From contig OY776489.1 of assembly GCA_963675655.1 (NCBI GenBank), positions 2,967,501 to 2,991,500 of the forward strand: a stretch of DNA of 24,000 nt. Reading direction: 5' to 3'. The stretch is from Candidatus Limiplasma sp. (GTDB taxonomy: Bacteria; Bacillota; Clostridia; Christensenellales; Aristaeellaceae). Shown piece by piece: positions 2,498-23,915 of this stretch. The notes below the pieces were generated by a model, which was not told the origin of the DNA, did not search any database, and was given only the letters and a program-made list of their open reading frames with translations. A program made the translations under genes and the position numbers. Positions within the stretch are counted from its first letter, which is position 1. Each line of letters starts with the position of its first letter.

Positions 2498-2542
2498 AAC
2501 AGGCCTCCTCTCGCAGAAGTTATTTATAATGTAATGCTTTCT

Positions 2543-3098: not shown

Positions 3099-3184
3099 GC
3101 GTCTTGAGGATTTTATAATGAGGTTTTAGCGATAGAGAAAGAAATTTAAATACTCAAATAGTGCTTTGATTCCCTAAAGCTTTG

Positions 3185-4633: not shown

Positions 4634-4660
4634 TTTAGCACCGGCTTTCTGCTTTGGTTA

Positions 4661-6372: not shown

Positions 6373-8061
6373 TTAGTTAGGAAGCAAGCAGAAAGTATCG
6401 CATACGTCTCCGCTTTCATTATTCAGCTTCTCAATACAATAGATAAACGCTTCCACCGCTTCGGGATCGAACTGTGTCCCGCTGCAGCGTTCCAACTCAA
6501 TCAGCGCCTGTTTAAACGTCTTGGTTTTCTGATAAGGGCGAAGCGAGGTCATCGCGTCAAAAGAGTCGACAACAGCCAGAAGCCTGGCAAGATAATGAAT
6601 ATTCTCGCCTTTCAGCCCCAGCGGATACCCCTTGCCGTCATAACGCTCATGGTGCTGCAATATAATCGGCCGTATTTCTTCCATGGCTTCATTATTCTTA
6701 ATAATATCCACAGCGTATTGAGGGTGATTCTTTAAAATCTCCCATTCCTCATTGGTAAGGGGTTCGGTTTTATTCAATATCTCTTCCTTGATATTGATTT
6801 TACCAATATCATGCAGATAAGCGGAATAAACCAGTTTACGCTTTTCGTCAGGGCTGATATTCAGCTTATCCGCTAAAAGATTCGAATAGAATACGACGCG
6901 TTCTACATGCCGGTAGGTATACTTGTCCTTCGCGTTAATTACAGCGATGAGTGTTTTGATTTGGGTAATCACTTCCGGCGCAAAGTGGAATTCATCCAAA
7001 ATAGAGAAGTATAATTCTACGCGATTTTTGCACAGGAATTTTGCGCGGTAACAAGCATCATCTGCGCTCTTAATCAGCTCTGCGTCCGTTTTCACCTTGC
7101 TGGGGAAAGAGGATACACCTACGGACACCGTAAGATTGCCGCCTGGTAAATTTTCCTGCCCATCAAACGGATATTCCTGAACAGCACGGCGTAATTTTTC
7201 CGCCTCCGCAAAAGCTTGCTCCTCATCATAATAGCTGAGCAAGACGGCAAATTCTTCCCCTCCATATCGGGCGATGAACGTTTCTTTAGCGAAGGTTGCC
7301 TTCATAATCAAAGCGATAGACCGCAGTACATCGTCGCCTTTTTGATGGCCATACAGGTCATTGTAGTACTTGAAATTATCAATATCAATAAAAAGCAGAG
7401 AAACCGGAAAATGCTTTTCTTCCGCTTCGCGTATCTGACTTGAAAGGTACTCATAGAAATATCGATGGTTATACAGTTCGGTAAGCCCATCGATATTGGC
7501 GATTTCCTTCAAGTAATCGATGTGCTTTTTACGAATGTCGTCATAGTATCCCACGGTCCAGGAAATAATCAAAAATACGCAAGCCAGAATAATATCGCTT
7601 TCAAAGTAAGTATTGACTGCCCCTCTGGGAGCAAATATTAAATCTACTCCTAAAACTATAGTAGCGGAAAGACCTGCTACAGTCATACTTGTTTTTTGGC
7701 TGCATTCAATACTGGTAAATAAAATTACAAATATAAATAAAAATTTGTAGCTGCTTTCATAAGAGCCTGTCATAACCACAGAAACCAATGCAATTGACAT
7801 GGATACAACTGGATCAATTAATTTTCGCGTTACTGATTTATTCGCAATTTTCGATTGCAGATAAATCCACAGCATATAAATAACCAGAATGATCAGGAGA
7901 ATGGAAATTGTTAAGACCCCGTGCGTGACATAGGATAAAAAGCCGGGCATCTTTGAATAGTATTGCAAAAACGCGATCGCTGGGAAAGCAAGCGACGATA
8001 TTTTGATAATATTCAGTATTTGTTGAATTTGTTCTTTATTATCCTTTTCCAAGATCGTCAC
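6373..8061 (-). CDS. Polytopic membrane protein with a GGDEF (diguanylate cyclase) domain and an HD-GYP (c-di-GMP phosphodiesterase) domain
   Basis: About six predicted TM helices, then ...DGLTELYNHRYF...RYGGEEFAVLL (GGEEF at 7249-7263). These are followed by HDIGK (6798-6812) and HHERYDGKGYP (6622-6654). The start is uncertain: GTG at 8061 or TTG at 8052, with GGAAGG upstream, or the ATG at 7950. The 622-aa track ORF starting at 8241 is rejected because that stretch is agrD read in another frame. Confidence 0.85.
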   Translation of the reverse strand: MTILEKDNKEQIQQILNIIKISSLAFPAIAFLQYYSKMPGFLSYVTHGVLTISILLIILVIYMLWIYLQSKIANKSVTRKLIDPVVSMSIALVSVVMTGSYESSYKFLFIFVILFTSIECSQKTSMTVAGLSATIVLGVDLIFAPRGAVNTYFESDIILACVFLIISWTVGYYDDIRKKHIDYLKEIANIDGLTELYNHRYFYEYLSSQIREAEEKHFPVSLLFIDIDNFKYYNDLYGHQKGDDVLRSIALIMKATFAKETFIARYGGEEFAVLLSYYDEEQAFAEAEKLRRAVQEYPFDGQENLPGGNLTVSVGVSSFPSKVKTDAELIKSADDACYRAKFLCKNRVELYFSILDEFHFAPEVITQIKTLIAVINAKDKYTYRHVERVVFYSNLLADKLNISPDEKRKLVYSAYLHDIGKINIKEEILNKTEPLTNEEWEILKNHPQYAVDIIKNNEAMEEIRPIILQHHERYDGKGYPLGLKGENIHYLARLLAVVDSFDAMTSLRPYQKTKTFKQALIELERCSGTQFDPEAVEAFIYCIEKLNNESGDVCDTFCLLPN

Positions 8062-8079
8062 ATCGCCTTCCAAGATCGT

Positions 8080-8120
8080 GAATAGGTAAAGGAAGATGGG
8101 AGGCGACGCTATCGCCCCCC
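8080..8120 (-). terminator. GC-rich hairpin with a U-rich tail immediately after agrD (terminator or attenuator candidate)
   Basis: The minus strand reads GGGGGGCGA-TAGCG-TCGCCTCCC, a 9-bp stem with one G.U pair at 8098-8120, followed by ATCTTCCTTTACCTATTC. It lies between the agrD stop (8132) and the candidate starts of the GGDEF/HD-GYP gene. Confidence 0.5.
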
Positions 8121-8131
8121 ACTGCGTCTGC

Positions 8132-8254
8132 TTACTTGTTGCGCAGAGACGCGGGCTCCTGCGGCTGGTAGAAGAACCAGTAGCAGGCAGAGGAAGCGAC
8201 CAGCGCCGCAACAACGGTGCTGACAGCGGCGATAACGCCATAGAACTTCTTCAT
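8132..8254 (-). CDS. agrD: AgrD-type cyclic (thio)lactone autoinducing peptide precursor, 40 aa
   Basis: Too short for the ORF track; translated by hand codon by codon: MKKFYGVIAAVSTVVAALVASSACYWFFYQPQEPASLRNK*. The ATG overlaps the agrB stop (ATGA), and GGAAGGAGG lies 7 nt upstream. It has an amphipathic leader, a single Cys, a hydrophobic 5-residue CYWFF segment and a Pro/Glu-rich tail, which is the clostridial AgrD layout. Confidence 0.85.
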   Translation of the reverse strand: MKKFYGVIAAVSTVVAALVASSACYWFFYQPQEPASLRNK

Positions 8255-8898
8255 AGATGTGCCTCCTTCCTGAAGAATTTAGGTAAATCATTCAGCTTAT
8301 TGAGCAGAATGGCACCCAACGGTGTGAGCGTAAGGGATTGCCAAGCCGTACCCAATAAAAGGCTGGTCCCATAAGAATGAAATGCCGGGTACCGGCTTGC
8401 AAAATAGTAGAAAACAAGCTGCAAGGCAAAATACACAGACACAATAATTGTACTGCCTTTGCGCATGCGCTTGATTTTGTCTTTATTGGTTATCGGTTTA
8501 TTCGGTGAATCAATTGGTACATAGCGATAAATGATCCAGTACGTAAGCATATAGCAAATGATCATCACAATGAGTACAAGAACAGGATCGATAATCGTAG
8601 CTAATATACGCGATGCTAACGCCGCAACTGTACAGTAAATAACGCTGACCACTGTACAGAAATCAGCATCATATGCGTGTGCGCCTCCGCTGTATTTTCG
8701 AAAGATGCTAACCGCAAAACATACGATCATTGCTTCTACAGGCGCACCGACAATAAAACCAAAAATCAATGCAAGTATAATGGTAATTCCTATTTGGACA
8801 ATTGCCAATAAACCATAAGCTACAACCGCTTCGCGTTCCTCATCATATCCTAGAGAAACAGCAATTTTATTGGCCAGCCTCCTTACCATTTTCTCCAC
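8251..8898 (-). CDS. agrB: AgrB-family membrane endopeptidase (AgrD processing and cyclisation)
   Basis: 215-aa polytopic ORF with the AgrB signature FRKYSGGAHAYDADFCTVVS (conserved GG-H...C catalytic His/Cys pair). It sits immediately upstream of, and translationally coupled to, agrD. Confidence 0.85.
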   Translation of the reverse strand: MEKMVRRLANKIAVSLGYDEEREAVVAYGLLAIVQIGITIILALIFGFIVGAPVEAMIVCFAVSIFRKYSGGAHAYDADFCTVVSVIYCTVAALASRILATIIDPVLVLIVMIICYMLTYWIIYRYVPIDSPNKPITNKDKIKRMRKGSTIIVSVYFALQLVFYYFASRYPAFHSYGTSLLLGTAWQSLTLTPLGAILLNKLNDLPKFFRKEAHL

Positions 8899-9391
8899 TT
8901 TTTTCTACCTTCTTTTTATTGATTGCTTTAGAAATATAATATCCTGAGACTACAAAAATAGCCAAGAATATCGTTGAGGGTATCGCATAGAGGGCTTGTT
9001 CAAGCGGTTTTGCTGACTTGACAAGTAAATATGCCTGCTCCTTACCATACATCACATTAAGCAGTAAGGAATTAAGTATTTCTGAGACAGAATTAAATAC
9101 AAGAATGATAACTGCAGCAATTACCTCTCGAGGCATTTTTGATAATTCAATATGGTACATTCTTTGAAAACTGAATATCATCACAAATAATGATAAAACA
9201 GTATTAATCCCAAGCGTGATGGGTAAAAAACGGATTAAATATGTAATGACGATATAAAGTGAGCTGAGTAATAAATACTTTTTCTTGTCAACAGGGATCC
9301 CCACCAGAATATGCATAGCCCACGCTATTAAAAAACCTTCCGGAATACCCTTGAGTAAAAACATATGTAGAGTAACCGCAATGCTGTTCAT
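8867..9391 (-). CDS. Small polytopic membrane protein of unknown function (about 5 TM helices, Lys-rich C-terminal tail)
   Basis: 174-aa ORF with an ATG start and AGGAGG 8 nt upstream. Its 3' end overlaps the agrB start by 32 nt. I recognise no catalytic motif. Confidence 0.65.
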   Translation of the reverse strand: MNSIAVTLHMFLLKGIPEGFLIAWAMHILVGIPVDKKKYLLLSSLYIVITYLIRFLPITLGINTVLSLFVMIFSFQRMYHIELSKMPREVIAAVIILVFNSVSEILNSLLLNVMYGKEQAYLLVKSAKPLEQALYAIPSTIFLAIFVVSGYYISKAINKKKVEKSGENGKEAGQ

Positions 9392-9411
9392 CGTGCTTTC
9401 CTCCTAAAATA

Positions 9412-9969
9412 TTATTGCTTTTGTCGGTCCGTAAAACGTAAATTTACCGCACGAATCATTGAGTAAAGCATAATACATACGAACAAGTGTATTAGTACAT
9501 CCCCCGCACTCAGAATACAGTAGCCATAGTCGATAAAATCTGTTAAGAATTTCAGCTTGGTTTCCGGTCCGCCTAAAGTGTGCATCGTGTCTGCTGTGGA
9601 AACCATCTCCGGCGTAACATACCCTGTCAGATAAGATAGTGATGGGAAAACAGGCATTTGTCCATTGTTTTGCGCAATGGCCAGCTTGTTGAGCAATGTA
9701 CCGGCGCCAATACATACAGAACCTGCAATCGCTGGTTTATACAATTTAAAAACAAATATTGCAAATAAAAATGAAAGTATAACAGCAGGTTCGGTGTACG
9801 GTACCAGTTGCACAAACATATAATTCCTAAGAAAAATACTTGCCTGAAAAACGACCAGCACGCACTGCATGATTAACACCGGATAAAAGGTCCATGTTTT
9901 GAAGAGATATTTCAGTTTGTAATGCTTTAACTTTGCGATTATGCATACCAGAATGATTTCGACAACCAT
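9412..9969 (-). CDS. Polytopic membrane protein, DUF5317-like
   Basis: I place the start at the ATG at 9969 (AGGAGG 8 nt upstream) rather than the track's GTG at 9978. Blocks ...LLNKLAIAQNNGQMPVFP... and ...TKLKFLTDFIDYGYCILSAGDVLIHL... match my recollection of the DUF5317 family. The family assignment is from memory and is not verified. Confidence 0.6.
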   Translation of the reverse strand: MVVEIILVCIIAKLKHYKLKYLFKTWTFYPVLIMQCVLVVFQASIFLRNYMFVQLVPYTEPAVILSFLFAIFVFKLYKPAIAGSVCIGAGTLLNKLAIAQNNGQMPVFPSLSYLTGYVTPEMVSTADTMHTLGGPETKLKFLTDFIDYGYCILSAGDVLIHLFVCIMLYSMIRAVNLRFTDRQKQ

Positions 9970-10128
9970 GGTATGCACCTCCTGCCTGCGTGTTTTACGT
10001 CAACAAATCTAGCATACCAAATACATTCTGAAAAAACAACCTGTATATCCGGTATGTTTTCATGCCATTTTGATGTGTATTAATAGAACACATTTCTGAT
10101 AATGAATTATTCAGTGACTTTAGGTATT

Positions 10129-10137
10129 ATTATACCA
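10129..10137 (-). promoter_or_regulatory. Extended -10 element (TGGTATAAT), a candidate promoter for the agr-type operon
   Basis: The minus strand reads ...GGGATAATATGGTATAATAATACC..., about 160 nt upstream of the first gene, with no good -35. A second, weaker candidate (TTGTTT-17 nt-TGgTATGCT) lies nearer, at about 10008-10039. Confidence 0.35.
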
Positions 10138-10208
10138 TATTATCCCGATTATAATGTTGTATTATTTGATTTGGTTCAAATGCGAACCATGCGTATGTTA
10201 TAAAAACA

Positions 10209-10244
10209 GAAAAAATCCATCATACCAAATTATGATATGATGGA
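10209..10244 (-). terminator. Rho-independent terminator ending the polysaccharide operon
   Basis: The minus strand reads TCCATCATA-TCATAATTTGG-TATGATGGA (9-bp perfect stem, 10216-10244) followed directly by TTTTTTCTGTTTTT. It lies 32 nt after the stop at 10276. Confidence 0.85.
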
Positions 10245-10275
10245 AAACTGTAAATGTGCTGTTATTTGTATAACA

Positions 10276-12543
10276 TCATTTTAACACGCTACCCAATGCT
10301 GCGAATTGATAAGGATCGTCCTGATACTTCCTCTCCATTTCGCTCAGGTAGATATCCAATGCAGCTGCTGTATAGATGCTATTATCAGACATGTGCATAA
10401 CCAGTACTGCACCGCTCTTTGTATACTTTTTCAGGTTGCTTGCCAGTTTATCTGCGCTGGAGGCTTTATAATCCTGACTTGAATAACTGCCGGATACTGA
10501 GAACAGATAGCCACAATCAAACACCTTTGTTAAGCCGCTTTTACTTACAGCCAGCGTTGGCGGGCGGAACAAACGTACCAATGCAGGTTGTCCACCCACG
10601 GATACATCCCCGATAATGGCTTGAAGTGCGTCGTAGGAGTTAATCAATTCGCCTTCCAGCTCATCCAATTGTTCGTTGCTAAGTTCTGTAAACTTCTTTC
10701 CTGTGCCGACGTCGTTTGAAAGCTGGAAATGCGAATACGTATGGCTTGCTACATTGTGCCCCGCAATCGCAATGGAACGCAGCAAATTTGGATTATACTG
10801 CACATTCTTTGCCACGACAAAGAATGTGGCCTTAGCGTTATGAGCTTTCAATACATCCAGTATCTTTGTGATGGTTTCATCCGTTCCCCAGTCATCAAAG
10901 GTTAAAAAGACCATATTCTGATCGTTGGGTACAAGCCCGGTTTTATCCAGGCGCTTAATCTCATCCTTCGTAAACCCCGGCAGGAAATTGGACGAACTGA
11001 CCCAATCTACGCCGATATAGCGTGTTGCAATCGCCGTCATCACATCGCCGGTAAGCTGCCCCGGATATATTTTATCCTTTACCGCAGAGAGAATAGAACT
11101 ATCCGCCAAAGGGTACTGATACGTATATTCACTGTTGTTAGCAATCGCCGTAAGGGATTTCAGGCTATAGATATTACGGTTTTTCGCAATCAGACCGATC
11201 AGTTCACCTAGCAACTGATTGCTTTTTTGGTACTGGTTCATCTGAAAATGAATGATTTCGCCCCGCTGTAACATACCTTGATTTTCCGGCAGCAGGTCTT
11301 CCAGTATCGCTTCCGCATCCGTTGCGCGAATATCATTGGTACGTACGGCGTTTACCATCGAGGATGCAAGCATATAACCGCCTGCACCGCAAGCGCGTTT
11401 GAGCAAACTGTTCGCGTTGCCATACACAGGCCGTACCGCCATATCATCCGTGTAAGTATATAAAGTACGTATAGTTTCTTCGGTTTTCATGATCTGCAGC
11501 AGCATTGCCTCGGCATTTGAATAAAGAGAAGGCTGTATAGCGATACCCAGACTTTGTCCCGCGTCTAAAATCTGCTGTATTTCATCTGTATAGCGGGTTG
11601 CTTCATCCAACGTAACAAAGAAGGTTCCGGTACCTTTTACGGTTTTTAATGTTTGCAAAACACCGCTTAACTCCGCTTGATTGCCAAGTCCGGAAAAGGT
11701 GAACGCAACGGCTCTTTCTGTTGTGTACACCCTTATCATCGCATCAGCTGAATCATCGTTTTCCTGCAAAAGTGCTTCAGAACTCGCGCCTAAATCGGTT
11801 GAGGCTAATGCAGAACATATTGCAGAAACCGCTGTGGATGCGCCGGCTTCTTTTGCAGTAAGCTCTACACAGAGAATAGAACCTCTAACTAGGCCATCCA
11901 CAGTTTTTTTAGCTATTGTACTTGTTGGAATATCGGCAAGCGTAATGGTTTTTGTCGGTACAACCACCGTATCCATAGAGCTGGCGTATGCAGCGGCTAA
12001 AAGCTCGTCATTTGCCGATTGCGGTGATAAGACCTGCGAAGGCCATAGCCCCACCTCGTTTTGTATTGTACCGCCTGAGCGGACAAAATCAGACACAATG
12101 CTCTCGACCGATGCGGATGTTACCGTAGATCCGTTTCCTTCGTACACAACGCCGACTACATAACCGGCATTGGCAATCATCCCAAGGCTCTCCTTATACT
12201 CGGATGCATCTTGCCCAGAGATGAAGAAAGAGGCGATAACATCGTTGCTTTCCATGGCATTGATCAGATTTTGTGTGGTTTGGGAATCGCTTAAACCTTT
12301 AAAAACCAGTTCAACCTTTTGCGACGTATCGTCACTTGCGGTTGTTCTTAGTAAAGCGATATCATCCTCGCCACGGTTTTGGTAATTCGTGACCGCTTCA
12401 TTGATGCGAATAATGGTTTGCTCTGATTGAGAAACGGGTACGATCGCACGCTGATCATCCGATCGGTACATTTTTACCGCTAAAAAGCAGCCGGCGATTA
12501 CCAGGAGAAAGAATACGGTATGCCGTAATTGTTTTTTCCACAT
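10276..12543 (-). CDS. Secreted or lipid-anchored triple NodB-module protein; only the C-terminal CE4 polysaccharide deacetylase domain is intact (paralog B)
   Basis: The start is taken at the ATG at 12543 (MWKKQLRHTVFFLLVIAGC...), which aligns with the paralog's N-terminus and has AGGAGG 13 nt upstream. There is a possible lipobox, IAGC. The C-terminal CE4 motifs are intact: LTFDDWG (10888-10902), SHTYSH (10729-10743), LFRPP and LVMHMSD. Two upstream NodB-like modules have VFKGL and TFSGL in place of TFDDG and lack the His-His motif. Confidence 0.85.
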   Translation of the reverse strand: MWKKQLRHTVFFLLVIAGCFLAVKMYRSDDQRAIVPVSQSEQTIIRINEAVTNYQNRGEDDIALLRTTASDDTSQKVELVFKGLSDSQTTQNLINAMESNDVIASFFISGQDASEYKESLGMIANAGYVVGVVYEGNGSTVTSASVESIVSDFVRSGGTIQNEVGLWPSQVLSPQSANDELLAAAYASSMDTVVVPTKTITLADIPTSTIAKKTVDGLVRGSILCVELTAKEAGASTAVSAICSALASTDLGASSEALLQENDDSADAMIRVYTTERAVAFTFSGLGNQAELSGVLQTLKTVKGTGTFFVTLDEATRYTDEIQQILDAGQSLGIAIQPSLYSNAEAMLLQIMKTEETIRTLYTYTDDMAVRPVYGNANSLLKRACGAGGYMLASSMVNAVRTNDIRATDAEAILEDLLPENQGMLQRGEIIHFQMNQYQKSNQLLGELIGLIAKNRNIYSLKSLTAIANNSEYTYQYPLADSSILSAVKDKIYPGQLTGDVMTAIATRYIGVDWVSSSNFLPGFTKDEIKRLDKTGLVPNDQNMVFLTFDDWGTDETITKILDVLKAHNAKATFFVVAKNVQYNPNLLRSIAIAGHNVASHTYSHFQLSNDVGTGKKFTELSNEQLDELEGELINSYDALQAIIGDVSVGGQPALVRLFRPPTLAVSKSGLTKVFDCGYLFSVSGSYSSQDYKASSADKLASNLKKYTKSGAVLVMHMSDNSIYTAAALDIYLSEMERKYQDDPYQFAALGSVLK

Positions 12544-12676
12544 GGTGCAATTCATTCCTCCTGTTTTCATATGAAATGCGTCGTTATAGACTTTACATGG
12601 TGTTGATTTAATAAAGCGTAATGGGAAAAGCATGGTTGAGTAGGATCACTATTAGTATAGCTGTTTTTACCAGAAA

Positions 12677-14953: not shown

Positions 14954-14954
14954 G

Positions 14955-15980
14955 TTAATATTCTCCCTTTATATCAGGCGTAATAAGCTCACTTTTCCAG
15001 TCGTTTACATCGTTGCCGCCCAATCTGAAGAAATCAAACGAAGAAAAACCGTTTTGCACGCACGTGTCGCGCCATATCGCGAGCGTTTCCGCATCTGCAT
15101 ACCAAACTTCGTGCGTTTCCCCATCAAAATCATAAATTGCGCACAACGCGCCGCTGTCGGCATCCCGTATGGGCATTGCATCTGCTTCGCACAGGTTCTC
15201 TTCGGCTTGCTGCTGTGTTAGCGAAGTGATCTCATCCCCGTGCCAATCAAATCCCCCGGTTGCAAACGCCATACTTACATTGGGCAAAAGCGACTGGTAA
15301 TAAGCACAGGTCTCATCTAAAAAGGCAATGTCAGCTTTGGGCCCCGGGCCGCTGTGATACCCAAACAGGTTATAACACATTACACTGTATTCCGGTCCCT
15401 GCGGTAAATCAACATAGTTAGGAGCATTCCACGGCAGTACAATACGTAATTGAATACCATCGCGCTCGCAAACTGACCATGCCTGTTGAATAAAGGTTGC
15501 GTATTGTTGCCAAAGTTCCGTATCTGTGCGTATATTCTCATAATCCAGTTCAATCCCAGTAAGACTATATCGATCAATCAGGCTTATGAGTGCTTCCAGA
15601 TGTAACGCCATAGATTCTTCATCTGCAAAGAGACGGCGAAGCAAGTCGGCATTTTTATTATCATAAACGTTGGTCTCGATTTCGATATCATTTACCACAG
15701 ATAGGTAAACATCCGTACCGGTATCCATGCAGTCTTTTTGAAGCGCGCGCAGCATGGTTTCGGTTTCATCCAGCATCAACAAATCGTCATTCGCATCGAA
15801 GATACACGCAAAAGCGATCACTTTATCCAGCTTATCCGTAAGTGAATTCAATTCCAGTATAGAATCGTCATACTCCCAATAAGGCATCCATGCGCCGTAT
15901 TGATAATTCTCCGCTATTGCGCCGGAGTACACCCCCGCCAGCAGTATAAGAACTGCAAATAGGCAAAGTTTCTTCTTCAC
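14955..15980 (-). CDS. Secreted GH18-like (chitinase-fold) glycoside hydrolase
   Basis: GTG start with AAGGAGG 7 nt upstream. The signal peptide is MKKKLCLFAVLILLAGVYSGAIA. LTGIELDYE aligns with the GH18 DGxDxDxE block and retains the D-x-E catalytic pair. The overall pattern resembles YaaH/YdhD-type GH18 proteins. Confidence 0.65.
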   Translation of the reverse strand: MKKKLCLFAVLILLAGVYSGAIAENYQYGAWMPYWEYDDSILELNSLTDKLDKVIAFACIFDANDDLLMLDETETMLRALQKDCMDTGTDVYLSVVNDIEIETNVYDNKNADLLRRLFADEESMALHLEALISLIDRYSLTGIELDYENIRTDTELWQQYATFIQQAWSVCERDGIQLRIVLPWNAPNYVDLPQGPEYSVMCYNLFGYHSGPGPKADIAFLDETCAYYQSLLPNVSMAFATGGFDWHGDEITSLTQQQAEENLCEADAMPIRDADSGALCAIYDFDGETHEVWYADAETLAIWRDTCVQNGFSSFDFFRLGGNDVNDWKSELITPDIKGEY

Positions 15981-16063
15981 GCATGATCCTCCTTGGACGT
16001 GTATATTTCGCCATCACAAGACTATTGGTTCAAACGCCATGCATATTGATCGTATAATGCAGA

Positions 16064-18007
16064 TTAGAAGTGATCCACAAAGAACTGGGTAATCGACTTA
16101 AACCAACCGGTAACAATGGAGTTGATCGTTCTTCTTTCTGCGAGGTTATAGGAGTATAACACTTTATTCGCATCCTGCGCGTCATAGATGACAATATCTT
16201 TAAAGACCGCATCGTAGACATCGTCGAAAATATAGCGCTGTGTATATTGCTCTTCCGTATTTTCATACACTTTCGCTGCCAGGGATATCGCACCTAACTG
16301 CGTACCGGATACCTTTAGCTGGCTTACGATTGGTTTATCATCGACCCATACACTCAATCGGCTGCCTACCAAACGAATCCGCAGTTTACGCTCTTCCCGT
16401 GTGGAAGTATCGTTAACCGGATAATATGGGGTTCCGCCATCCTCCAGTGTAAGTACAGGGGTTAAATACAATTCCTGCAACTTTCGCGTTGCTTCCGCGA
16501 TCCGCTGCGGATCAGTATCGTATTGAATGATGGCCTGCTGAAGCGCAATTAAACCATTATGCTCATCTTCCTGCGTAGAAATATAGGGACCGCCGTCAAA
16601 TTCAAACAGGTTTTGGAAGAACAACTGCTCTTCGTCGTCGCCGACATCCCAAATCTCAAAATTATTATCTTCCAGGCGAATTTCGATACCATGATCCCAT
16701 TCGCGATCCGTACGAAGGCATATACTTTGCCGACCAACTAGATTACCCCGTACATAAACTGTCATATCCAAATCGGAGAACAGCTGTGTATTCATTGTTA
16801 TCTGGCCACGTCCTGCCGGTTCGGAGGTGACAATGATTTGGTTTCCTTTATACTCTGCTACGCCTTCATCCGAATACCAATGCGAAGCTTCATCTTCATC
16901 ACCGGTTACAAATTGTAGGGTATCGCCCGTATCGTCCCATATCCGCATCAGCATATGATTGGTTGAAAAATAGCTTTGCACTTGCAAACGTGTAAGGTCA
17001 TAAATGGATGAATCCAGTGTGTTTAAACAGGATCCTTCTCGATTATAGTTCATAGTGTACAAGTTCGTAATCCATTTCCGGTTCGCCTCGCTGGCAATTG
17101 CATCCGTACCGAAAGCGCCGGTATTGGCGTGCATTAGCACATACATTTCAGGTACATAGCCAATGGCATTGGTATACTCGGTACTCATCCCTTCATAATC
17201 TGCTTGAATCCGTTTTTCCAGTTCTTCGACGCTTTCAACCCGCAGCCGATCCTCATCACGGATAAAATCCATCAAATAATGGTTGTAGTCGCGCCACAGG
17301 TATTGACGGACGTCCAGAAACTCTTTTGCGTTCAACTGATCAAAGAAGTTATTATAACGGTCAAACACATTGATATAGGACAGTCGATAACCATTGCTGC
17401 CGAGTTCCCAATATGCGTTATTAATCTGCGTCTTAATATCGTCGGCCGTTATGTAATCGCTCTCTTCATCATCCAGATTATCAGCATACGTACACTCGGT
17501 CGCGCTGTAACCATGTTTTTTCAGCGTGTCAATCGCATAATCGGTTGTTTTTTTAATGCCGTCTTCAAAAAAGAGGAAGAGCGATTTTTCCGGCAGTGTA
17601 CTGTACCGCAAGTAAAAATCAGCAATATCCTGTTGTGTAATCGTTACATAACCGGATGCATGCAAAGCTTCAATCTGTTCTTTAAATGTTTCCAGATTAA
17701 CAATTTTGCTTTCCAGGCTCGTAGACGTAGTTAATCCCGGATAAGATATGGCGATAAAGCGCCGGTCTGCTCCCGCGTCCGATTGTACGGAGGGGCCGTC
17801 GCTATTGAAACTGGTATTGCTTTTACTGGTAGGGCCGCCGCTTGCCGATGTTTGAATGGAATGTACAATAGAATAGACGCCAACACCAACCGCAACGACA
17901 ATTAAAACAATCTCAATAATAGATCGCAGTAATTTTTTGCGGTTCGAGCGCTGCAAGCGTGCCTTGGATGCTCTAAAATCTTTATTGGGGTCATTTGATT
18001 CGGTCAT
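16064..18007 (-). CDS. Single-pass membrane protein with a degenerate PgaB/IcaB-like NodB module and a C-terminal beta-sandwich (lectin/LamG-like) region
   Basis: 647-aa ORF with an ATG start and GGAAGGAG 9 nt upstream. A TM helix lies at about residues 28-50. LFLFFEDGIKKTTDYAIDTLKKHGYSATE aligns with the LTFDDG...ATFF block of CE4, but the His-His motif is absent (ELGSNGYRLSY). The beta-strand-rich C-terminal half has no motif I can name; calling it lectin-like is a guess. Confidence 0.6.
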   Translation of the reverse strand: MTESNDPNKDFRASKARLQRSNRKKLLRSIIEIVLIVVAVGVGVYSIVHSIQTSASGGPTSKSNTSFNSDGPSVQSDAGADRRFIAISYPGLTTSTSLESKIVNLETFKEQIEALHASGYVTITQQDIADFYLRYSTLPEKSLFLFFEDGIKKTTDYAIDTLKKHGYSATECTYADNLDDEESDYITADDIKTQINNAYWELGSNGYRLSYINVFDRYNNFFDQLNAKEFLDVRQYLWRDYNHYLMDFIRDEDRLRVESVEELEKRIQADYEGMSTEYTNAIGYVPEMYVLMHANTGAFGTDAIASEANRKWITNLYTMNYNREGSCLNTLDSSIYDLTRLQVQSYFSTNHMLMRIWDDTGDTLQFVTGDEDEASHWYSDEGVAEYKGNQIIVTSEPAGRGQITMNTQLFSDLDMTVYVRGNLVGRQSICLRTDREWDHGIEIRLEDNNFEIWDVGDDEEQLFFQNLFEFDGGPYISTQEDEHNGLIALQQAIIQYDTDPQRIAEATRKLQELYLTPVLTLEDGGTPYYPVNDTSTREERKLRIRLVGSRLSVWVDDKPIVSQLKVSGTQLGAISLAAKVYENTEEQYTQRYIFDDVYDAVFKDIVIYDAQDANKVLYSYNLAERRTINSIVTGWFKSITQFFVDHF

Positions 18008-18124
18008 CTGTATCTGCTTCTCCTTCCGGATGGCAATGATTGGTCTTTATCAGTTCGGTTGATACTAAGTATAGGCAAGTATAATCTGTATGCAGTAATC
18101 CTGCTTTACCATAACGATTAACCA

Positions 18125-19909
18125 TTATGTTCCGCTGGCAGTCTTTTGTTTTTTCTTTTTCTTCTTGTTGCCGCGTGTACCCCAATCCGATACCCAGAAG
18201 GTGAACCAGGCATACGGCATTTGCCATAGTAAGATGGCTTCATAGTAGATTACAAACCATAAACCATAAATCCAAAGATTGCTCTTTTTGAGTCGAAGCT
18301 GTGCCAGGCTCATCAGCATGGCCATCATCAAGATACCCAACAAGAATGTCGTTGGGAAGATATGCTTTGTTATTGGAACGATGATCAGGTTGTACACCAT
18401 AATTAACGGCGCAATCAACGGTATTAATAGCCCCATATAAAACGACATAGACATCAACGGTTCTTTACGCCACATAAAAGAGCCGGCTTTCAGGCTTTCA
18501 CGCAGCCAAGAACGCTTCCAACGCATCTGCTGCTTCAAAAATACCTTTTGGCTCTTGGGAACCAGCGTAGAACAGATAGCCGTATCCTGATAGGATGTAC
18601 GGTAGTTTTTCACAACAAAGTTCGTCAAGCTGCGGTCATCACCAAAGGTTGCTTTCCGTCCAAGGAAGGTTTGGTTAACCCAGGGCTCCAATACTTCTTT
18701 TACGGCAGACAGCCGATAGCAGGACAGCGGACCGGACAGGCAGGTAACAGCATTGAAATAGGCTTCTGCTGCTTTAATAATACGGAAACTGATGTAATAA
18801 CGTACGCATTGCATCTTTGTCAGGTGGTTAGTATACGTGTTTACAACGTCTGTACGGCCGGATACACCACCCATTTTTGGATCAAACATCGGTTGTACGA
18901 GGTTGCGAATGGCATCCGGCTCCAAAAAGCTATCTGAATCCACAAAACCAATTAATTCCGTAGTTGCGTTTTTAATACCGAGTGCCATCGCCTCGCGTTT
19001 GCCCTGATTATGCTTTTGAATGAAGACGCGAATTCTGTTTTTAGTTTGGAATCGTTCATCCAAATTCCACAGCTTTGTTATGGTATCTTTTATCACTTCC
19101 ACTGAACGATCCGAAGAGCCGTCGTCTACAACAATGATCTCAAGCTTATCCAGAGGATAATCCTGATCGATACAGCTCATAATCGTACGGGCGATATATT
19201 CCTCTTCGTTAAAGCAGGGAATAACAATGGTAATGGATGGCGTATAGTTTGGATCCACCGGCACAGGTTTATACATGGAACCAAATAAATAACGCGATAA
19301 CAGGAACGATGCCGTCGCGATGGAGTATGCGTATAAAATGCTGTTTTGGTTGAAGTACATTACACTTTCCGTGCGCATCAGTACAATAACCAAGGTAACT
19401 AAAAACAAGAAGAAGATGGATATCGAAGAAAGCGCCGTATCTTTCTTTCTGCGGCGGGATATATACAACGGTTGATCAAACTGTACGGCAAAACTCTGTT
19501 TCTCAGGTGAATAGCGGACTACTTTACCTTTCACACGGTAATGATCTTCCGTACCTTCGTGCAATACGCCCGGTAAAAGCGAAAAGTCCAGCGTAAGGGA
19601 CTCGTCCATTTCTAATGCTTTGGCAAGTGCTGTTCGCGGCAACTTCATCTGTATGCCGGTTTGGGAAATATCCATACAGCGTGCAGGAAAACGCCGCCGC
19701 CCGTTTGAAGTAACAAGCACTTTAAAATTGGCAAAATAACGCTGCCCCGCATAATTTGCATACTGCGGTTTAGATTTATCCTGATGCAGATTATTACGCC
19801 GGTCCTCGGGCGCACGAATACTTGCCGGGTCGGGAACGTGAGACAGCAGCCTGCGATCCCGGCGCGGTTGAAGCATTACGTCTGTAAGGGTTGAATATTT
19901 CTTAGCCAT
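18125..19909 (-). CDS. Processive family-2 glycosyltransferase (HAS/NodC/chitin-synthase-like) with an N-terminal PilZ-like domain
   Basis: 594-aa ORF. Residues about 55-150 follow the PilZ beta-barrel pattern, with DISQTG (the D/NxSxxG motif, 19655-19672). Two TM helices follow. The GT2 core has VIPCFNEE, VVDDGSSD, FVDSDS, GDDRSLTNF (18623-18643) and QQMRWKRSW (QxxRW, 18518-18532). It ends with three or more C-terminal TM helices and a Lys-rich tail. Confidence 0.85.
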   Translation of the reverse strand: MAKKYSTLTDVMLQPRRDRRLLSHVPDPASIRAPEDRRNNLHQDKSKPQYANYAGQRYFANFKVLVTSNGRRRFPARCMDISQTGIQMKLPRTALAKALEMDESLTLDFSLLPGVLHEGTEDHYRVKGKVVRYSPEKQSFAVQFDQPLYISRRRKKDTALSSISIFFLFLVTLVIVLMRTESVMYFNQNSILYAYSIATASFLLSRYLFGSMYKPVPVDPNYTPSITIVIPCFNEEEYIARTIMSCIDQDYPLDKLEIIVVDDGSSDRSVEVIKDTITKLWNLDERFQTKNRIRVFIQKHNQGKREAMALGIKNATTELIGFVDSDSFLEPDAIRNLVQPMFDPKMGGVSGRTDVVNTYTNHLTKMQCVRYYISFRIIKAAEAYFNAVTCLSGPLSCYRLSAVKEVLEPWVNQTFLGRKATFGDDRSLTNFVVKNYRTSYQDTAICSTLVPKSQKVFLKQQMRWKRSWLRESLKAGSFMWRKEPLMSMSFYMGLLIPLIAPLIMVYNLIIVPITKHIFPTTFLLGILMMAMLMSLAQLRLKKSNLWIYGLWFVIYYEAILLWQMPYAWFTFWVSDWGTRGNKKKKKKQKTASGT

Positions 19910-19940
19910 GACTTAAAACCTCTTCGCTCGTTGCGTGCGG

Positions 19941-21611
19941 TCAGTTGGTAACATAGTTACGAATAAAATCAATCCACTTCTCGCAACCTTCGTCACTGAT
20001 ATGAAACCCATATGTTTCCGTATCCAAACAAAAATTCTCCGTTAGATCTCCTTTTGCATTTCGTAGCGGATACGCAACGTCTAAAAATGGAATGTCATAC
20101 TGTAAACAGAATTTGTACATTGCAAGATTGTAGCTGAATATTTTGCCGTTGTTTGGTTTGGTATAGCGATCTTCAATACCGGGCGGAACAGACTCCAGCC
20201 AAATGGTGATATCCGGGTTCGCCTGGCGAATTTCATAAACCAACAGCTTGAGATTGTCAATAAACTGCTCTGGTGAATAGCCGCTTATATCCGTTTGCCC
20301 CGGCATAATAATTGCATTCTTCGCGCCAAGCTGCTTCAGCCCTTGCGCAACTGTTACGCTTTCCCCATTAATTGTCGGATGTTCGACGTTGCTGTTTACC
20401 GGCAGCAAAGACAGCCCAATACTGAAGTTATTGGTAGTCAGGAATTGCGTATCTCCCAGATATTCCGGCTGTGTTAAACGGCGCCACTCTACATAATCCT
20501 GCAAGCCCATGGTAATCGAATCGCCGATAAACACGACATTTTGCGCTAGCTTTCCATCTACGACGGCTGTTTCGTCTGCTGTTGCTTCGGGGTCTGCGGT
20601 TACTTGCGGTTGTTTGGGTATATTCATCAAGGCACTGTCTGTAACCGGAAGGGTATAGTTATCCGCATCCAGCATCGCCAGTGTATCAGCATCCAGTTCG
20701 GCAGGATTGTCAAACATGGTAATATGTTCCCGTTGTAAACGCTGCGGCGTAACAATGGTGTAATCCATCTCGTCCAGTGCCTGCAGCAGCCAGCCAACCA
20801 CATTGGTTACATTGGCGTATGTATTGGCAATGGTGTCTTCCATCCGGTCGGATAACATCGGCGGCGGGTCTATCGCACGGTTGTCCATAATGTCCTCAAT
20901 ACCTTGATATTCATCTGCATCCAGCGCCTGACCCAGTTTGATGGTAATAATAGACCCACGAACCAGTTTTTGTACCCAGGCCAGCGCATCTTCATACGTG
21001 CCAAAGCTTGCATGGTTTAAAAACACGTTTGGTTGAACGCCTGCCTCCAAGCCGGTATAAGATGCTGCCTGCATAACCTCTTGCGTATATTCGGTTCCGT
21101 TACAGCGGAACAGGGTTGGCAGCTTACCGATTGCCTTTGAAATCAGCTCCTGTCCACGTTGAAACTGGTGTATATTCGTTAGAACATCATTGTCCTGCAT
21201 ATCTTTTTCGCCGTTCAAGCCGTAATTGCCAACCGTAAAGCCCTGACTGGCAATCTGCTTAACCGTCTCAGCATGCTCATCCGCAACAATGCCACTGATA
21301 AAGAATATAGCAGTTGCATTTTCTCTTTTCATTTCACTTGCAACAGTCTGCACCGTGTTATCGTCAATATAGCCTTCCAATATAATGCTGACGACACGTT
21401 TGTTGGTGATTACGTTCCCATACAACACGGCAGGTTCGTTTACCAGTGTTGGCGCTGGCGTCAGCGAAGCGTGAATCAGCTCCGGTGTAGCCGATTGGCT
21501 TATGGTATATCCTTGTTCCTGTGTACATCCGCTCAGAAACAACATACTGCCGCAAAGAAGAACCAGTATTAAATAGCGAAAGATTTTCAATGAAAATATC
21601 CGTTTCTTCAT
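19941..21611 (-). CDS. Lipoprotein fusing a degenerate NodB-like module to a C-terminal SGNH/GDSL hydrolase domain
   Basis: Signal peptide with lipobox LFLSGC. The N-terminal module VVSIILEGY...ATAIFFISG...GFTVGNYGLNG has the NodB pattern without the catalytic Asp and His residues. The C-terminal part has VVFIGDSITMGL (SGNH block I with the nucleophile Ser) and ...YGFHISDEG (block V His). The start overlaps the upstream stop (ATGA). Confidence 0.7.
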   Translation of the reverse strand: MKKRIFSLKIFRYLILVLLCGSMLFLSGCTQEQGYTISQSATPELIHASLTPAPTLVNEPAVLYGNVITNKRVVSIILEGYIDDNTVQTVASEMKRENATAIFFISGIVADEHAETVKQIASQGFTVGNYGLNGEKDMQDNDVLTNIHQFQRGQELISKAIGKLPTLFRCNGTEYTQEVMQAASYTGLEAGVQPNVFLNHASFGTYEDALAWVQKLVRGSIITIKLGQALDADEYQGIEDIMDNRAIDPPPMLSDRMEDTIANTYANVTNVVGWLLQALDEMDYTIVTPQRLQREHITMFDNPAELDADTLAMLDADNYTLPVTDSALMNIPKQPQVTADPEATADETAVVDGKLAQNVVFIGDSITMGLQDYVEWRRLTQPEYLGDTQFLTTNNFSIGLSLLPVNSNVEHPTINGESVTVAQGLKQLGAKNAIIMPGQTDISGYSPEQFIDNLKLLVYEIRQANPDITIWLESVPPGIEDRYTKPNNGKIFSYNLAMYKFCLQYDIPFLDVAYPLRNAKGDLTENFCLDTETYGFHISDEGCEKWIDFIRNYVTN

Positions 21612-22318
21612 GACAATACTTCCCCCGACTCCTCATGGGTCGCAGAGGGGTCTGCAACGCGGTTCAGCGACATGTGCGAATTATCAATCTGTTGCAGCAC
21701 ATCGATAGAAGCGTCCAATTCTCTTTCCATACCGCGGAATTGCTCGGCAAGGTCTTTTTTAAACTGCAAAGCGCTGTAGTAAGCTGCTCGGCAAGCAGAA
21801 ACCAGTTGCCTGCGCTGTTCATTGGCCTGCTGCATCATCCGCTCACTGTCCATATTAGCCCGGGCAACAATTTGATCTGCCCGTTGCACAGCTTGCGCCA
21901 CTACATCTTCAGCACTCTGTTTTTCCAGATAAGCAATTTGCTCGTTCATATGGTCGATCCGGTTTTGCAGGCGTGCCACCTCTGCGTTCAGCTGAGTGAT
22001 ATGCTCGCTTTGCGCAGTATTTTCTCCGCTGGCTTGGGTAAGCTCATCACCAATCGCAGCTAGCTTATGCTGTTGATTGGTGATGATGCTTTCCTGCTGC
22101 TTTGTTTTTTCGCGCAGGGAAACAAGCATCGCTTCCTGGCTTTTATTTGTATTAAGCAGTTGCTGGTATTGCGTTTCTAACTTTAACTGCTTGCTACGTT
22201 CAATTTCTGCTTCATCCGCCAGATCGTTCAAGTGGCGGTCAACCTCGTCAACCAGATAATATTTTCGCCGCTTTACTGTAAATCCGTAATCTGCGTAATC
22301 ATCAATCGTCTTGTTCAT
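21608..22318 (-). CDS. DivIVA-domain coiled-coil protein
   Basis: The N-terminus ...YGFTVKRRKYYLVDEVDRHLNDLADE fits the DivIVA N-terminal pattern (F..x.RGY..xEVDxfLd). The remainder is a long Q/E/A-rich heptad-like coiled coil. Confidence 0.7.
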   Translation of the reverse strand: MNKTIDDYADYGFTVKRRKYYLVDEVDRHLNDLADEAEIERSKQLKLETQYQQLLNTNKSQEAMLVSLREKTKQQESIITNQQHKLAAIGDELTQASGENTAQSEHITQLNAEVARLQNRIDHMNEQIAYLEKQSAEDVVAQAVQRADQIVARANMDSERMMQQANEQRRQLVSACRAAYYSALQFKKDLAEQFRGMERELDASIDVLQQIDNSHMSLNRVADPSATHEESGEVLS

Positions 22319-22342
22319 CTGGTGGATCGCCTCCTTGTTTGA

Positions 22343-23401
22343 TTAGAATAGCTTAGGAAGTAAGCCAAATTTGTATAATGCATAAGCTACGGAAATAATA
22401 GCGGCAATCATTAATATGCCGTTTAGCAGCGTGAAGAGCAAAACGGGTTTCCCAGAGTCCTTCTGCTTCCACTGTGAGTTGGGAGCCTGGATATAATCGT
22501 CCCATCTTGAGGCGCGTTTTTCGCCAGCATTCTCGACCGTTTCGGTTGCAGATGATTTGTTGTTTTTATCCATGTCAGGCGTCCACATATCTGTTTCTTC
22601 CGGATTATAATCCACTTTGTCAACGGCAGTGTCTTCTGCACTGCGGACCGCCTGTTTTACCTGCTGTGTATACGTTGTGGGTACGAACTGCTGTATATTC
22701 TCTTTTGCTACGTCGGATGATACCGTTACGCTCTCCATAGAAGGTGACGGACCGGAAAATTGGATTGTTACCGTTGTTTGCGGCTGAACCGTTCCCGGTA
22801 CAGAAACTGGTTGTACCGGCACAGCTACCGTGTTGCGCTGTTCCTGTATAACCACAGTTTCTTCTGCCTTTGGCGCTTCCTGTATGGCAGATGCTACACT
22901 CTGCTGCTGCGGTACGTTTACCACTGTGTTATTTACAGGCTGTGGCGGCTGTGTATACACAGGCTGATTGATCTGCGTAGCCGCAACGGGAACAGACTGC
23001 TGCCGCGTTATCGGTTGCGCCTGCAACGGACTATTTTGCCTTGGCAAACGGTTGCCGGCAACAGAGGTTGCCACAGGCTGCGCTACTCGGCGTTTGCTTT
23101 CATAACCACCCGTTGTAACCTGCTGTTTTACTGTTTGTACTTGTGTGTTTTGTGTATGACTATTCAGCTGCGCAAATAGTAAATTTACTTGTGCCGCTAA
23201 ATACATATCGCAATTTTTTGATAGGGTTCTATTGTGCGAATGCTCTCCAATATTTGAAAATACCTGTGCAGCGATACGGTGCGCTTCATTTGGTGAGTTT
23301 GTCAACTCCAATGCAGTTGAATAGACAAACAAATAATGTTCTTTTCGAAAGCGCTCCAATGCTTCGGGTGTATCTATGTGTATCAACCCATCTCCATTCA
23401 T
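22343..23401 (-). CDS. Tail-anchored protein of unknown function: small helical N-terminal domain, Q/P/V-rich low-complexity linker, C-terminal TM helix
   Basis: 352-aa ORF with an ATG start and GGAAGGAAGGAGG upstream. The C-terminus LLFTLLNGILMIAAIISVAYALY is a single TM helix. The N-terminal roughly 80 aa vaguely resemble a sigma-70 region-2-like helical bundle, but that resemblance is weak. Confidence 0.6.
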   Translation of the reverse strand: MNGDGLIHIDTPEALERFRKEHYLFVYSTALELTNSPNEAHRIAAQVFSNIGEHSHNRTLSKNCDMYLAAQVNLLFAQLNSHTQNTQVQTVKQQVTTGGYESKRRVAQPVATSVAGNRLPRQNSPLQAQPITRQQSVPVAATQINQPVYTQPPQPVNNTVVNVPQQQSVASAIQEAPKAEETVVIQEQRNTVAVPVQPVSVPGTVQPQTTVTIQFSGPSPSMESVTVSSDVAKENIQQFVPTTYTQQVKQAVRSAEDTAVDKVDYNPEETDMWTPDMDKNNKSSATETVENAGEKRASRWDDYIQAPNSQWKQKDSGKPVLLFTLLNGILMIAAIISVAYALYKFGLLPKLF

Positions 23402-23745
23402 GGGCTGTCCTCCTTCCTTCCCGGTGCCTGCTACTACAAATTGCTGCTTTGGGAAACAATGTTTTCCCGCCTACGCTTACACTTTTTGCATAACATTATT
23501 TACTCTGCAAAAAGTATAAAACTCCCGGTATCTCTTACGTGACAGAAGGAAAAGTTATGGCCGAACAACCTACCTGTTTATAAGCGAATAAACCCCCGCT
23601 GATAATGCCATATACATATACTCGGTGCGCTTCGTTCATTGATTGCAACAGACTGTATCCATATACAACCAAATCATTATAAACCGAATTGTCTGGCCTT
23701 TCGCCTCCTATACCGGCACGCTGATAAGCCTTGTTCTTCAATTTG

Positions 23746-23775
23746 TATTATAGTTCAAACAATGGTACTTTGACA
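23746..23775 (-). promoter_or_regulatory. Sigma-A promoter candidate (TTGTCA-18 nt-TATAAT) for the polysaccharide operon
   Basis: The minus strand reads TTGTCAAAGTACCATTGTTTGAACTATAAT. The -35 is at 23775-23770 and the -10 at 23751-23746. This implies a leader of about 340 nt before the ATG at 23401. Confidence 0.55.
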
Positions 23776-23915
23776 AGGGTTTCCATGCTATAAGCCCTCT
23801 CTGTAGCGATAAAACTGGTTATTTTTGAGTTCTATCTCAACATATTGTAGTGTTATCTTCCAGAAAATCAATAGATTTATCAAATAGTTACTTTCTAAGA
23901 TTCTCTGCTTCAGCA

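Follow-up and report, generated by a model that had tools for sequence, protein, structure and literature searches.

In agr-type quorum sensing AgrB cuts and cyclises the precursor peptide AgrD. The receptor of clostridial systems that carry agrBD only is an acknowledged gap, and a 2022 review described the quorum-sensing pathways of Clostridium botulinum as ones that 'remain to be defined' (PMC9229411). In Clostridium perfringens, CPE1563 and CPE1562 are co-transcribed with agrBD, and toxin production was restored only by a plasmid carrying the two upstream open reading frames (ORFs) plus agrBD (Vidal et al. 2009, PMC2706048). Here we describe an agr locus in a 24,000-nucleotide (nt) stretch of a Candidatus Limiplasma assembly (contig OY776489.1, positions 2,967,501 to 2,991,500 of the forward strand; hereafter the window, numbered from its first letter) and name a conserved candidate for the receptor, encoded immediately after agrD. 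This candidate is a membrane enzyme of cyclic di-GMP (c-di-GMP) turnover with a six-transmembrane-helix (6TM) domain followed by GGDEF and HD-GYP domains. The explanation that we hold to be probable on balance is that the window contains two independent modules, an agr cassette and a polysaccharide operon, and that in the first of these the 6TM-GGDEF-HD-GYP enzyme is the most likely reader of the agr peptide.

The minus strand holds every gene in 6373–23775 and likewise all long ORFs within 1439–23741. The genes form two clusters, the polysaccharide operon (10276–23741) and then, on the same strand, the agr operon (6373–9978). A sequence-only reading of this DNA had put the two about 240 nt apart; we measure 238 nt between the strong terminator at the end of the first operon (10216–10244) and the next start codon, GTG 9978. 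The three parts named in that reading, agrBD, a GGDEF/HD-GYP enzyme and a PilZ-fused synthase, are all present by domain matches and motifs. Its agr operon content holds for agrBD and the GGDEF/HD-GYP gene but not for the count of three genes, as five are seen. In order, the unit encodes DUF5317, a 174-residue membrane protein that we call X174, AgrB, AgrD, a hairpin and the 6TM-GGDEF-HD-GYP protein:

10129 to 10137, minus strand: candidate extended -10 element (TGGTATAAT) for the agr cassette, inferred by eye only.
9412 to 9978, minus strand: DUF5317 membrane protein, 188 residues, first gene of the cassette, by family match; its counterpart is the 188-residue gene upstream of C. perfringens agrB.
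8867 to 9391, minus strand: X174, a 174-residue multi-pass membrane protein of an unnamed family; it overlaps the start of agrB by 32 nt.
8251 to 8898, minus strand: AgrB, peptide-processing membrane protease (PF04647, 130.6 bits against a cut-off of 23).
8132 to 8254, minus strand: AgrD, 40-residue autoinducer precursor MKKFYGVIAAVSTVVAALVASSACYWFFYQPQEPASLRNK (TIGR04223, 51.2 bits against a cut-off of 19).
8096 to 8122, minus strand: 12-bp G+C-rich hairpin directly 3' of the agrD stop codon, found by folding.
6373 to 8055, minus strand: membrane c-di-GMP enzyme with a 6TM sensor (residues 1–186), GGDEF and HD-GYP domains, by domain matches and orthologues.

AGGAGG precedes GTG 9978 at the start of the cassette, and a strong ribosome-binding site lies ahead of agrD. 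AgrB has its His...Cys pair (GGAHAYDADFC, motif GGAH-x6-C), and the predicted AgrD ring is CYWFF, a Cys and then four ring residues (sequence SSACYWFFYQPQEP). In the enzyme, the GGDEF domain (PF00990, 145 bits) carries RYGGEEF, with the GGEEF active site, invariant in 17 orthologues, and the HD-GYP domain (PF13487, 133 bits) carries LHDIGK and HHERYDGKGYP, which are invariant or nearly so. Judged by their HD, HHE, GYP and GGEEF motifs, both catalytic domains are intact. The RxxD I-site five residues before GGDEF is absent from the window enzyme, which reads KETFIARYGGEEF there; an I-site is optional for membership of the diguanylate cyclases.

The enzyme had been taken to start at 8241, as a 622-residue ORF; we place the start at GTG 8055, judging by the database protein P0001 and 16 orthologues. 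The longer ORF (6373–8241) is over-extended, its first 62 codons (8056–8241) overlapping agrD in another frame and having no orthologue support. A 103-residue ORF (9404–9715, minus strand) is an artefact inside the DUF5317 gene, again without support from orthologues. Neither AgrC nor AgrA is encoded in the window, in which no ORF of at least 100 residues has a kinase, receiver or LytTR domain; because this pair is absent, the locus is not a canonical agrBDCA. No c-di-GMP riboswitch or other Rfam element linking the operons was found in the window at E <= 1.

A search with the X174 profile led to a C. perfringens contig (L126) with the order DUF5317, X174, AgrB, AgrD (SACIWFTHQPEEP), a terminator-like hairpin and a 564-residue 6TM-GGDEF-HD-GYP protein (7325–9019), the last being 49% identical to the window enzyme and hitting the sensor profile with E = 1e-47. 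Their positions identify them as CPE1563, CPE1562, agrB (CPE1561), agrD and CPE1560, so that the cassette is orthologous to this locus in each of its genes. The two loci are alike in the order of DUF5317, X174, AgrB and AgrD, with identities of 44, 32, 36 and 54%, and in the AgrD design SAC-x4-(Y/H)QPEEP. They differ in their rings, CLWFT or CIWFT in C. perfringens against CYWFF in the window, and in that the published C. perfringens operon ends at agrD, with no described role for the downstream enzyme gene. The agr locus beside CPE1560 is a major virulence regulator in that species. CPE1560 itself is named in a single paper of the searchable literature, and there solely as a landmark (Vidal et al. 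2009, PMC2706048).

We aligned the first 208 residues of 16 orthologues of the enzyme and searched one genome per species with this alignment. This sensor scan gave 33 species-level loci, which were then searched by tblastn and profiles with all window proteins. Where the flank sufficed, AgrB and AgrD were always encoded directly upstream of the enzyme gene. The gene after agrD encodes a 6TM sensor in all 33 scan loci and likewise in L121 and L126 (C. perfringens), and DUF5317 and X174 join AgrB and AgrD in nearly all. Hosts known from metagenome assembly are Limiplasma, other Oscillospiraceae/Eubacteriales, one Lachnospiraceae and two Peptococcaceae; Anaerofustis also carries the cassette, as do the named clostridia C. 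sporogenes, C. tepidum, C. caldaquaticum, C. niameyense and Clostridium sp. FAM 1755. By sequence comparison, then, the agr unit is a conserved five-gene cassette of the C. perfringens type, and the half of it that produces the signal belongs to the agr family.

The hairpin after agrD is conserved as well. All 25 loci that were folded, a kinase locus included, and the C. perfringens contig have a perfect stem of 10–15 bp at this position. It is the structure and not the sequence that is conserved, because the stem sequences differ among loci; the U-richness downstream also varies. The hairpin probably serves as a leaky (partial) terminator or stabilises the 3' end, and would in this way let the signal genes be expressed independently of the receptor gene.

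Several lines of evidence suggest that the 6TM domain senses the peptide. The sensor profile (residues 1–186) matches just 170 clusters among 1.84 billion representative proteins. There are 68 long hits, 36 of them with GGDEF (27 also with HD-GYP) and 31 with HisKA/HATPase_c; the kinase-type proteins carry PAS, GAF or receiver domains, or none of these. Clostridium sp. USBA 49 has DUF5317, X174, AgrB and AgrD in this order and then, in the exact slot of the enzyme, a 6TM-PAS-histidine kinase whose sensor is 32% identical to that of the window. Because a kinase with a homologous sensor fills this slot, the 6TM domain is likely to be the peptide sensor. A 6TM kinase also lies ~1.1 kb from X174-AgrB-AgrD in Alkaliphilus metalliredigens. 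C. sporogenes, C. tepidum and Clostridium sp. FAM 1755 have three sensor paralogues each, one enzyme and two kinases, interleaved with two agrB and three X174 genes (L033 3897–14468, L030 5265–16174 and L029 7853–18605), and C. niameyense and C. caldaquaticum have two each. This three-paralogue region matches agr-1/agr-2 of group I C. botulinum as a review and a primary paper describe it, and the pathway downstream of agr-1/agr-2 is called undefined in reviews. The kinases at L033, L030 and L029 are of the HisKA type and have no response regulator adjacent.

The signal and the sensor also vary together. AgrD is invariant at SAC-x4-YQP-x-EP and hypervariable at four ring positions, the rings including CYWFF, CFLFF, CWWFF, CVWCV, CLFAA and others, and in divergence the sensor outpaces the catalytic part of the enzyme by a factor of 1.35. 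With catalytic distance controlled, ring distance correlated with sensor distance (partial Mantel r = 0.35, p = 0.0004), a result that is supportive only, the partial Mantel test being too liberal on phylogenetically structured data. The converse test, ring against catalytic distance with sensor distance controlled, gave r = 0.08 and p = 0.25. A fast sensor that tracks a hypervariable ring is the known pattern of AgrC and its peptide. The link from peptide signal to c-di-GMP enzyme, which the earlier reading had proposed from agrBD and the GGDEF/HD-GYP gene, is strongly supported by these comparative data: the 33 of 33 loci, the sensor-swap kinase in the same slot and the ring/sensor co-variation. 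Thus the 6TM-GGDEF-HD-GYP protein is probably the long-sought receptor of the clostridial agr signal.

Apart from the liberal nature of the Mantel test, other observations weigh against a receptor role. The phenotypes of C. perfringens agr, the only member with genetics, are credited to the VirS/VirR two-component system, and we know of no reported role for its downstream enzyme gene. Because those phenotypes are assigned to VirS/VirR, the 6TM enzyme might be an additional receptor or might not act as one. The sensor model has six helices at moderate confidence (predicted local distance difference test score, pLDDT, 71), and its best match among solved structures, the membrane cyclase ImcA (PDB 8wcn), is weak (E = 0.14, template-modelling (TM) score 0.52). 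The PilS-like 6TM family PF25323 gives weak hits in 11 of the 68 sensor-family members, a few of them above the cut-off (28.8–34.8 bits against 27 for the relatives P0257, P0336 and P0370). In the 2 kb of flank that L039 offers, a kinase with the same sensor is accompanied by X174 and not by agrB. Because of the PilS-like matches and this kinase, the 6TM fold is not peptide-specific in itself. The window sensor family is like the PilS-like 6TM domain and ImcA in having six predicted helices with short loops ahead of a cytoplasmic signalling domain; it differs from them in its own invariant motifs, QIxxIxK..S, YKFLF and FE.D, and the window enzyme does not hit PF25323 even at E = 10.

These points can be read as saying that the GGDEF/HD-GYP protein is not the receptor. 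Its 6TM domain would then sense some other membrane or envelope cue, like 6TM domains of the PilS type, or act as an anchor, and a kinase encoded elsewhere, for instance a VirS-like one, would read the peptide; the enzyme gene would be linked to agrBD for co-expression only, with c-di-GMP changes accompanying signal production. The credit given to VirS/VirR, the PilS-like matches and the sensor kinase without a visible agrB all favour such an account, as does the finding that the gene always adjoining a sensor gene is X174 and not AgrB. It sits poorly with the linkage of sensor and agrD in 33 of 33 loci from several families of Clostridia, with the retention of the sensor-agrBD linkage where the output domain has been exchanged, and with a sensor that outpaces the catalytic domains and tracks the hypervariable ring, as is known for AgrC. 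Nor do the gene tables of 42 loci (33 from the scan, three with kinases, one from C. perfringens and five duplicates) list a canonical AgrC/AgrA pair, although no systematic search for one was made. Taken together, we consider a non-receptor role unlikely.

No protein named VirS turned up in the clusters of 20 sensor-family representatives out of the 170. The kinase fragment P0360 is the sole HATPase_c_5 protein to match the sensor profile, in part (E = 1.3e-7, profile positions 69–178), and lies on a contig too short to reveal its genomic context. In full texts outside the subscription literature that combine agrBD or agrD with GGDEF, HD-GYP or diguanylate cyclase, the enzyme is nowhere called an agr receptor; the matches there were reviews and a C. 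difficile transcriptome study only.

Module A (6373–9978) is the agr peptide quorum-sensing locus in its clostridial form. Its product is predicted to be a very hydrophobic thiolactone with the ring CYWFF. If the enzyme is the receptor, as we favour, then in the key step the six-helix N-terminal domain of the downstream protein would sense this peptide in the membrane, and the peptide-bound domain would shift the balance between the GGDEF cyclase and HD-GYP phosphodiesterase activities. Cell density would be written directly into c-di-GMP with no kinase, and the hairpin after agrD would allow stronger expression of the signal genes than of the receptor gene.

The remaining conserved partner, X174, always sits immediately upstream of agrB or of a 6TM-sensor gene, including at L029, L030, L033, L035, L039, L120 and L121. 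There are up to three copies per locus, and some X174-sensor pairs have no agrB between them. Invariant residues are P17, R54, L56-P57-I58, E104 and P138. The structure predicted from an alignment of database homologues has a pLDDT of 80; X174 has no Pfam family, and no solved structure matches the prediction (best E = 0.2, TM score at most 0.34). A distant member, P0561, bears the name 'CPBP family intramembrane me...', which we did not adopt, there being no Pfam hit and no conserved His. X174 may act in peptide maturation, in export or as a co-receptor. Profile-profile comparison found no homology among the sensor, X174, DUF5317 and AgrB (all probabilities <=2.1%). Extra GGDEF-domain genes lie just upstream of the cassette at L024 (5164–7341), L025 (6283–6726) and L026 (4557–5000), whose hosts are Anaerofustis and a metagenome-assembled Lachnospiraceae; L024 also has two tandem X174 copies.

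The second module, the polysaccharide operon, comprises the following features:

23747 to 23776, minus strand: promoter-like site TTGTCA-18-TATAAT with 11 of 12 matches, by consensus only; such sites are not enriched over shuffles.
23535 to 23741, minus strand: 68-residue ORF at the operon head, of uncertain gene status, with no family hit.
22343 to 23401, minus strand: 352-residue protein with a Q/P/V-rich low-complexity middle and a C-terminal membrane helix, the first conserved gene.
21608 to 22318, minus strand: 236-residue coiled-coil protein, weakly DivIVA-like (26 bits, under the cut-off of 28).
19941 to 21611, minus strand: CE4 polysaccharide deacetylase fused to an SGNH/GDSL hydrolase, 556 residues, by family matches.
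18125 to 19909, minus strand: synthase of 594 residues with an N-terminal PilZ domain (~57–146) and a membrane GT2 of the hyaluronan-synthase/NodC/chitin-synthase type.
16064 to 18007, minus strand: 647-residue protein anchored in the membrane, its N-terminal region weakly CE4/PgaB-like (at threshold), always after the synthase gene.
14955 to 15980, minus strand: 341-residue secreted GH18-like protein, a weak match below the Pfam cut-off.
12677 to 14953, minus strand: CE4 polysaccharide deacetylase, 758 residues, by family match.
10276 to 12633, minus strand: CE4 polysaccharide deacetylase, 785 residues, a tandem paralogue of the 758-residue gene, by family match.
10216 to 10244, minus strand: intrinsic terminator, a 12-bp stem and then UUUUUUCUGUUUUU (U run), found by folding.

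The terminator folds at -19 kcal/mol (z = -6.35), and none of 200 shuffles folds as well. Fifteen orthologous polysaccharide loci retain a core of deacetylase, PilZ-GT2, 647-residue protein and GH18-like protein. At the head of the operon conservation is partial: in L037 only the N-terminal 70 residues of the 352-residue protein are conserved, and the coiled-coil protein is kept at 44% identity. L037, L122 and L124 have a single CE4 gene of 755/756 residues where the window has two, and the tandem pair is a lineage-specific duplication at the operon end that abuts the agr cassette.

The closest solved structures to the GT2 are hyaluronan synthases (E about 5e-36). Its closest NCBI family is NodC, at 197 bits against a cut-off of 550; PgaC_IcaA scores 128 against 422 and the CelA equivalog TIGR03030 49.7 against 699. 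Because these scores are far under the cut-offs, the synthase falls outside the NodC, PgaC/IcaA and CelA equivalogs alike. From the synthase type and the four proteins with CE4 matches, the product is probably a polymer containing N-acetylglucosamine that is partly de-N-acetylated. The combination of a processive membrane GT2 with PilZ is shared with BcsA (cellulose) and Alg44 (alginate), and the accompanying CE4 deacetylases with PgaCD/IcaAD. The window protein differs from BcsA in that its PilZ is N-terminal, before the membrane helices, whereas the PilZ of BcsA is C-terminal, after the GT2/TM core, and it differs from PilZ-gated synthases in its non-canonical RxxxR. A literature search found no paper on an N-terminal PilZ-GT2 architecture.

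Module B (10276–23741) is a synthase-dependent operon in which PilZ would gate synthesis in response to c-di-GMP. For the step from c-di-GMP to the PilZ synthase in the sequence-only reading, the PilZ fold and the DxSxxG motif are in place and the canonical RxxxR is not. PilZ (PF07238) scores 30.5 bits in the full protein and 33.5 in the isolated N-terminus, with a cut-off of 22.5, and the (D/N)xSxxG motif reads DISQTG in the window and is invariant as (D/N)xSQTG in the 15 orthologues compared, which are 58–77% identical to the window protein. The weak point is the RxxxR motif before the first strand, which is reduced to a single invariant arginine, R57. Together with the several PilZ orthologues that score under the stored Pfam threshold, this could mean that the domain is degenerate and does not bind c-di-GMP, in which case the polysaccharide operon would not respond to it. 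We regard such degeneration as doubtful. The window domain scores above the curated cut-off, and the (D/N)xSQTG motif has stayed invariant despite the divergence of the orthologues. Moreover, two invariant arginine pairs, D18-R19-R20 and R37-R38, stand upstream of the barrel in the motif DRRLL...VPDP...DRR (window 19796–19855), in the N-terminal tail where PilZ proteins hold their c-di-GMP-binding arginines, and such strong conservation of a non-catalytic N-terminal domain argues for function. The DRRLL...VPDP...DRR tail may be a variant c-di-GMP-binding motif, and c-di-GMP binding by the synthase PilZ is plausible but unproven.

We then asked whether the two operons form one unit. The closest relative of the window is a Candidatus Limiplasma metagenome assembly (L004), with an enzyme 96% identical, that is syntenic wherever the two overlap, from the 647-residue polysaccharide-operon gene through MscS. 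On the agr side 26 species-level loci are informative, having 1 kb or more of sequence ahead of DUF5317, and just one of them, L004, has polysaccharide genes upstream of its cassette; on the other side, none of the 10 polysaccharide loci with enough downstream flank has AgrB, AgrD, DUF5317 or X174 beside it. GCA_034928535.1 has the cassette on JAYFOV010000013 and the polysaccharide operon on JAYFOV010000023, and GCA_012729115.1 has them on JAAYDR010000019 and JAAYDR010000098, so the modules co-occur in some genomes without linkage. The adjacency is confined to this Candidatus Limiplasma-like lineage and is an accident of gene order; because only a syntenic 96% relative shares it and the modules are apart elsewhere, it is no evidence for dedicated coupling.

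The sequence-only reading had combined the clusters into one module for density-dependent matrix production, with the enzyme supplying c-di-GMP locally to the neighbouring PilZ-synthase. In favour of this are the same-strand adjacency in the window and L004, the intact state of the signal, enzyme and synthase parts, and the presence of both modules in at least four related genomes. A local pairing could also recur with other genes, as different, unrelated c-di-GMP genes stand beside three other polysaccharide loci, all from metagenomes: a TM-GGDEF gene (L040 3566–4642), a GGDEF-EAL gene (L044 14782–16164) and the gene of a large EAL...GGDEF protein (L045 504–3608). These neighbours hint at c-di-GMP control, but their enrichment is not significant against the empirical control (3 in ~100 kb of flank vs 6 in ~400 kb, Poisson P ~0.14). 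The idea of a dedicated module is also contradicted by the independent occurrence of the operons in related genomes, with adjacency at 1 of 26 agr and 0 of 10 polysaccharide loci and that one a near-identical relative, by the two assemblies with the modules on separate contigs, by the strong terminator and separate promoter region between the operons, and by the many clostridia that have the cassette where no such operon was found within 10 kb. As regards adjacency, independent occurrence is the very outcome that the sequence-only reading had named as its refutation. We judge a single matrix module to be improbable. Under the two-module explanation, coupling through a shared c-di-GMP pool is possible, and module A may influence module B in this way.

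Two further observations concern the neighbourhoods of the cassette. Two loci from metagenome-derived Peptococcaceae (L031 6377–7033 and L032 4799–5455, opposite strand) show a weak match to the GH18-like protein, at 24% identity, ahead of the cassette; it probably represents an unrelated GH18 protein outside any polysaccharide operon. In the window, the region 3' of the cassette (1439–6136, minus strand) holds genes for a DcuC-type transporter, an M20 peptidase, a Bcp peroxiredoxin and an MscS channel, which are unrelated to either module and whose synteny is common only to L004.

The three-part adjacency matters much less than the conserved receptor hypothesis. One and the same sensor is joined to a histidine kinase in some proteins and to a c-di-GMP enzyme in others. 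The receptor role, if confirmed, would be to our knowledge the first case in which a c-di-GMP enzyme directly reads an agr-type peptide, tying quorum sensing to the control of biofilm, motility, sporulation and toxins in gut commensals and pathogens. At its most ambitious, the proposal would be that clostridia with orphan agrBD, a set that would cover C. perfringens and the relatives C. sporogenes and C. tepidum of C. botulinum group I, have their own 6TM receptor family, unrelated to canonical AgrC and with interchangeable outputs, and that Limiplasma adds a three-step circuit from density to matrix. In that circuit the cyclic peptide would directly switch the bifunctional enzyme, with no kinase involved, and the enzyme would control the adjoining PilZ-gated chitin/hyaluronan-like synthase. 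We offer this full version as speculation that is unlikely to hold in its entirety.

How the locus relates to the best-known agr system can be stated simply. It is like the agrBDCA of Staphylococcus aureus in its AgrB and AgrD families and in having a hypervariable ring and a fast-evolving multi-pass sensor encoded just downstream. It differs in lacking, in the window, an AgrC-type (HPK10, HATPase_c_5) kinase and an AgrA (LytTR), in having two extra membrane proteins ahead of agrB, and in a downstream protein predicted to act through c-di-GMP turnover and not phosphorylation. Precedents for such an output come from Gram-negative bacteria: RpfR (PAS-GGDEF-EAL) responds to Burkholderia diffusible signal factor (BDSF), RpfC/RpfG carries diffusible signal factor (DSF) to an HD-GYP protein, and ScrABC carries the S-signal to a GGDEF-EAL protein. 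By analogy the window enzyme would be like these in that a secreted autoinducer alters the balance of a bifunctional or degradative c-di-GMP enzyme, though it has no sequence relationship to them beyond the catalytic domains. The Rpf and Scr signals are fatty acids or small molecules perceived through PAS domains or periplasmic partners, whereas here, in a Gram-positive lineage, the signal would be a cyclic peptide perceived through an integral 6TM domain.

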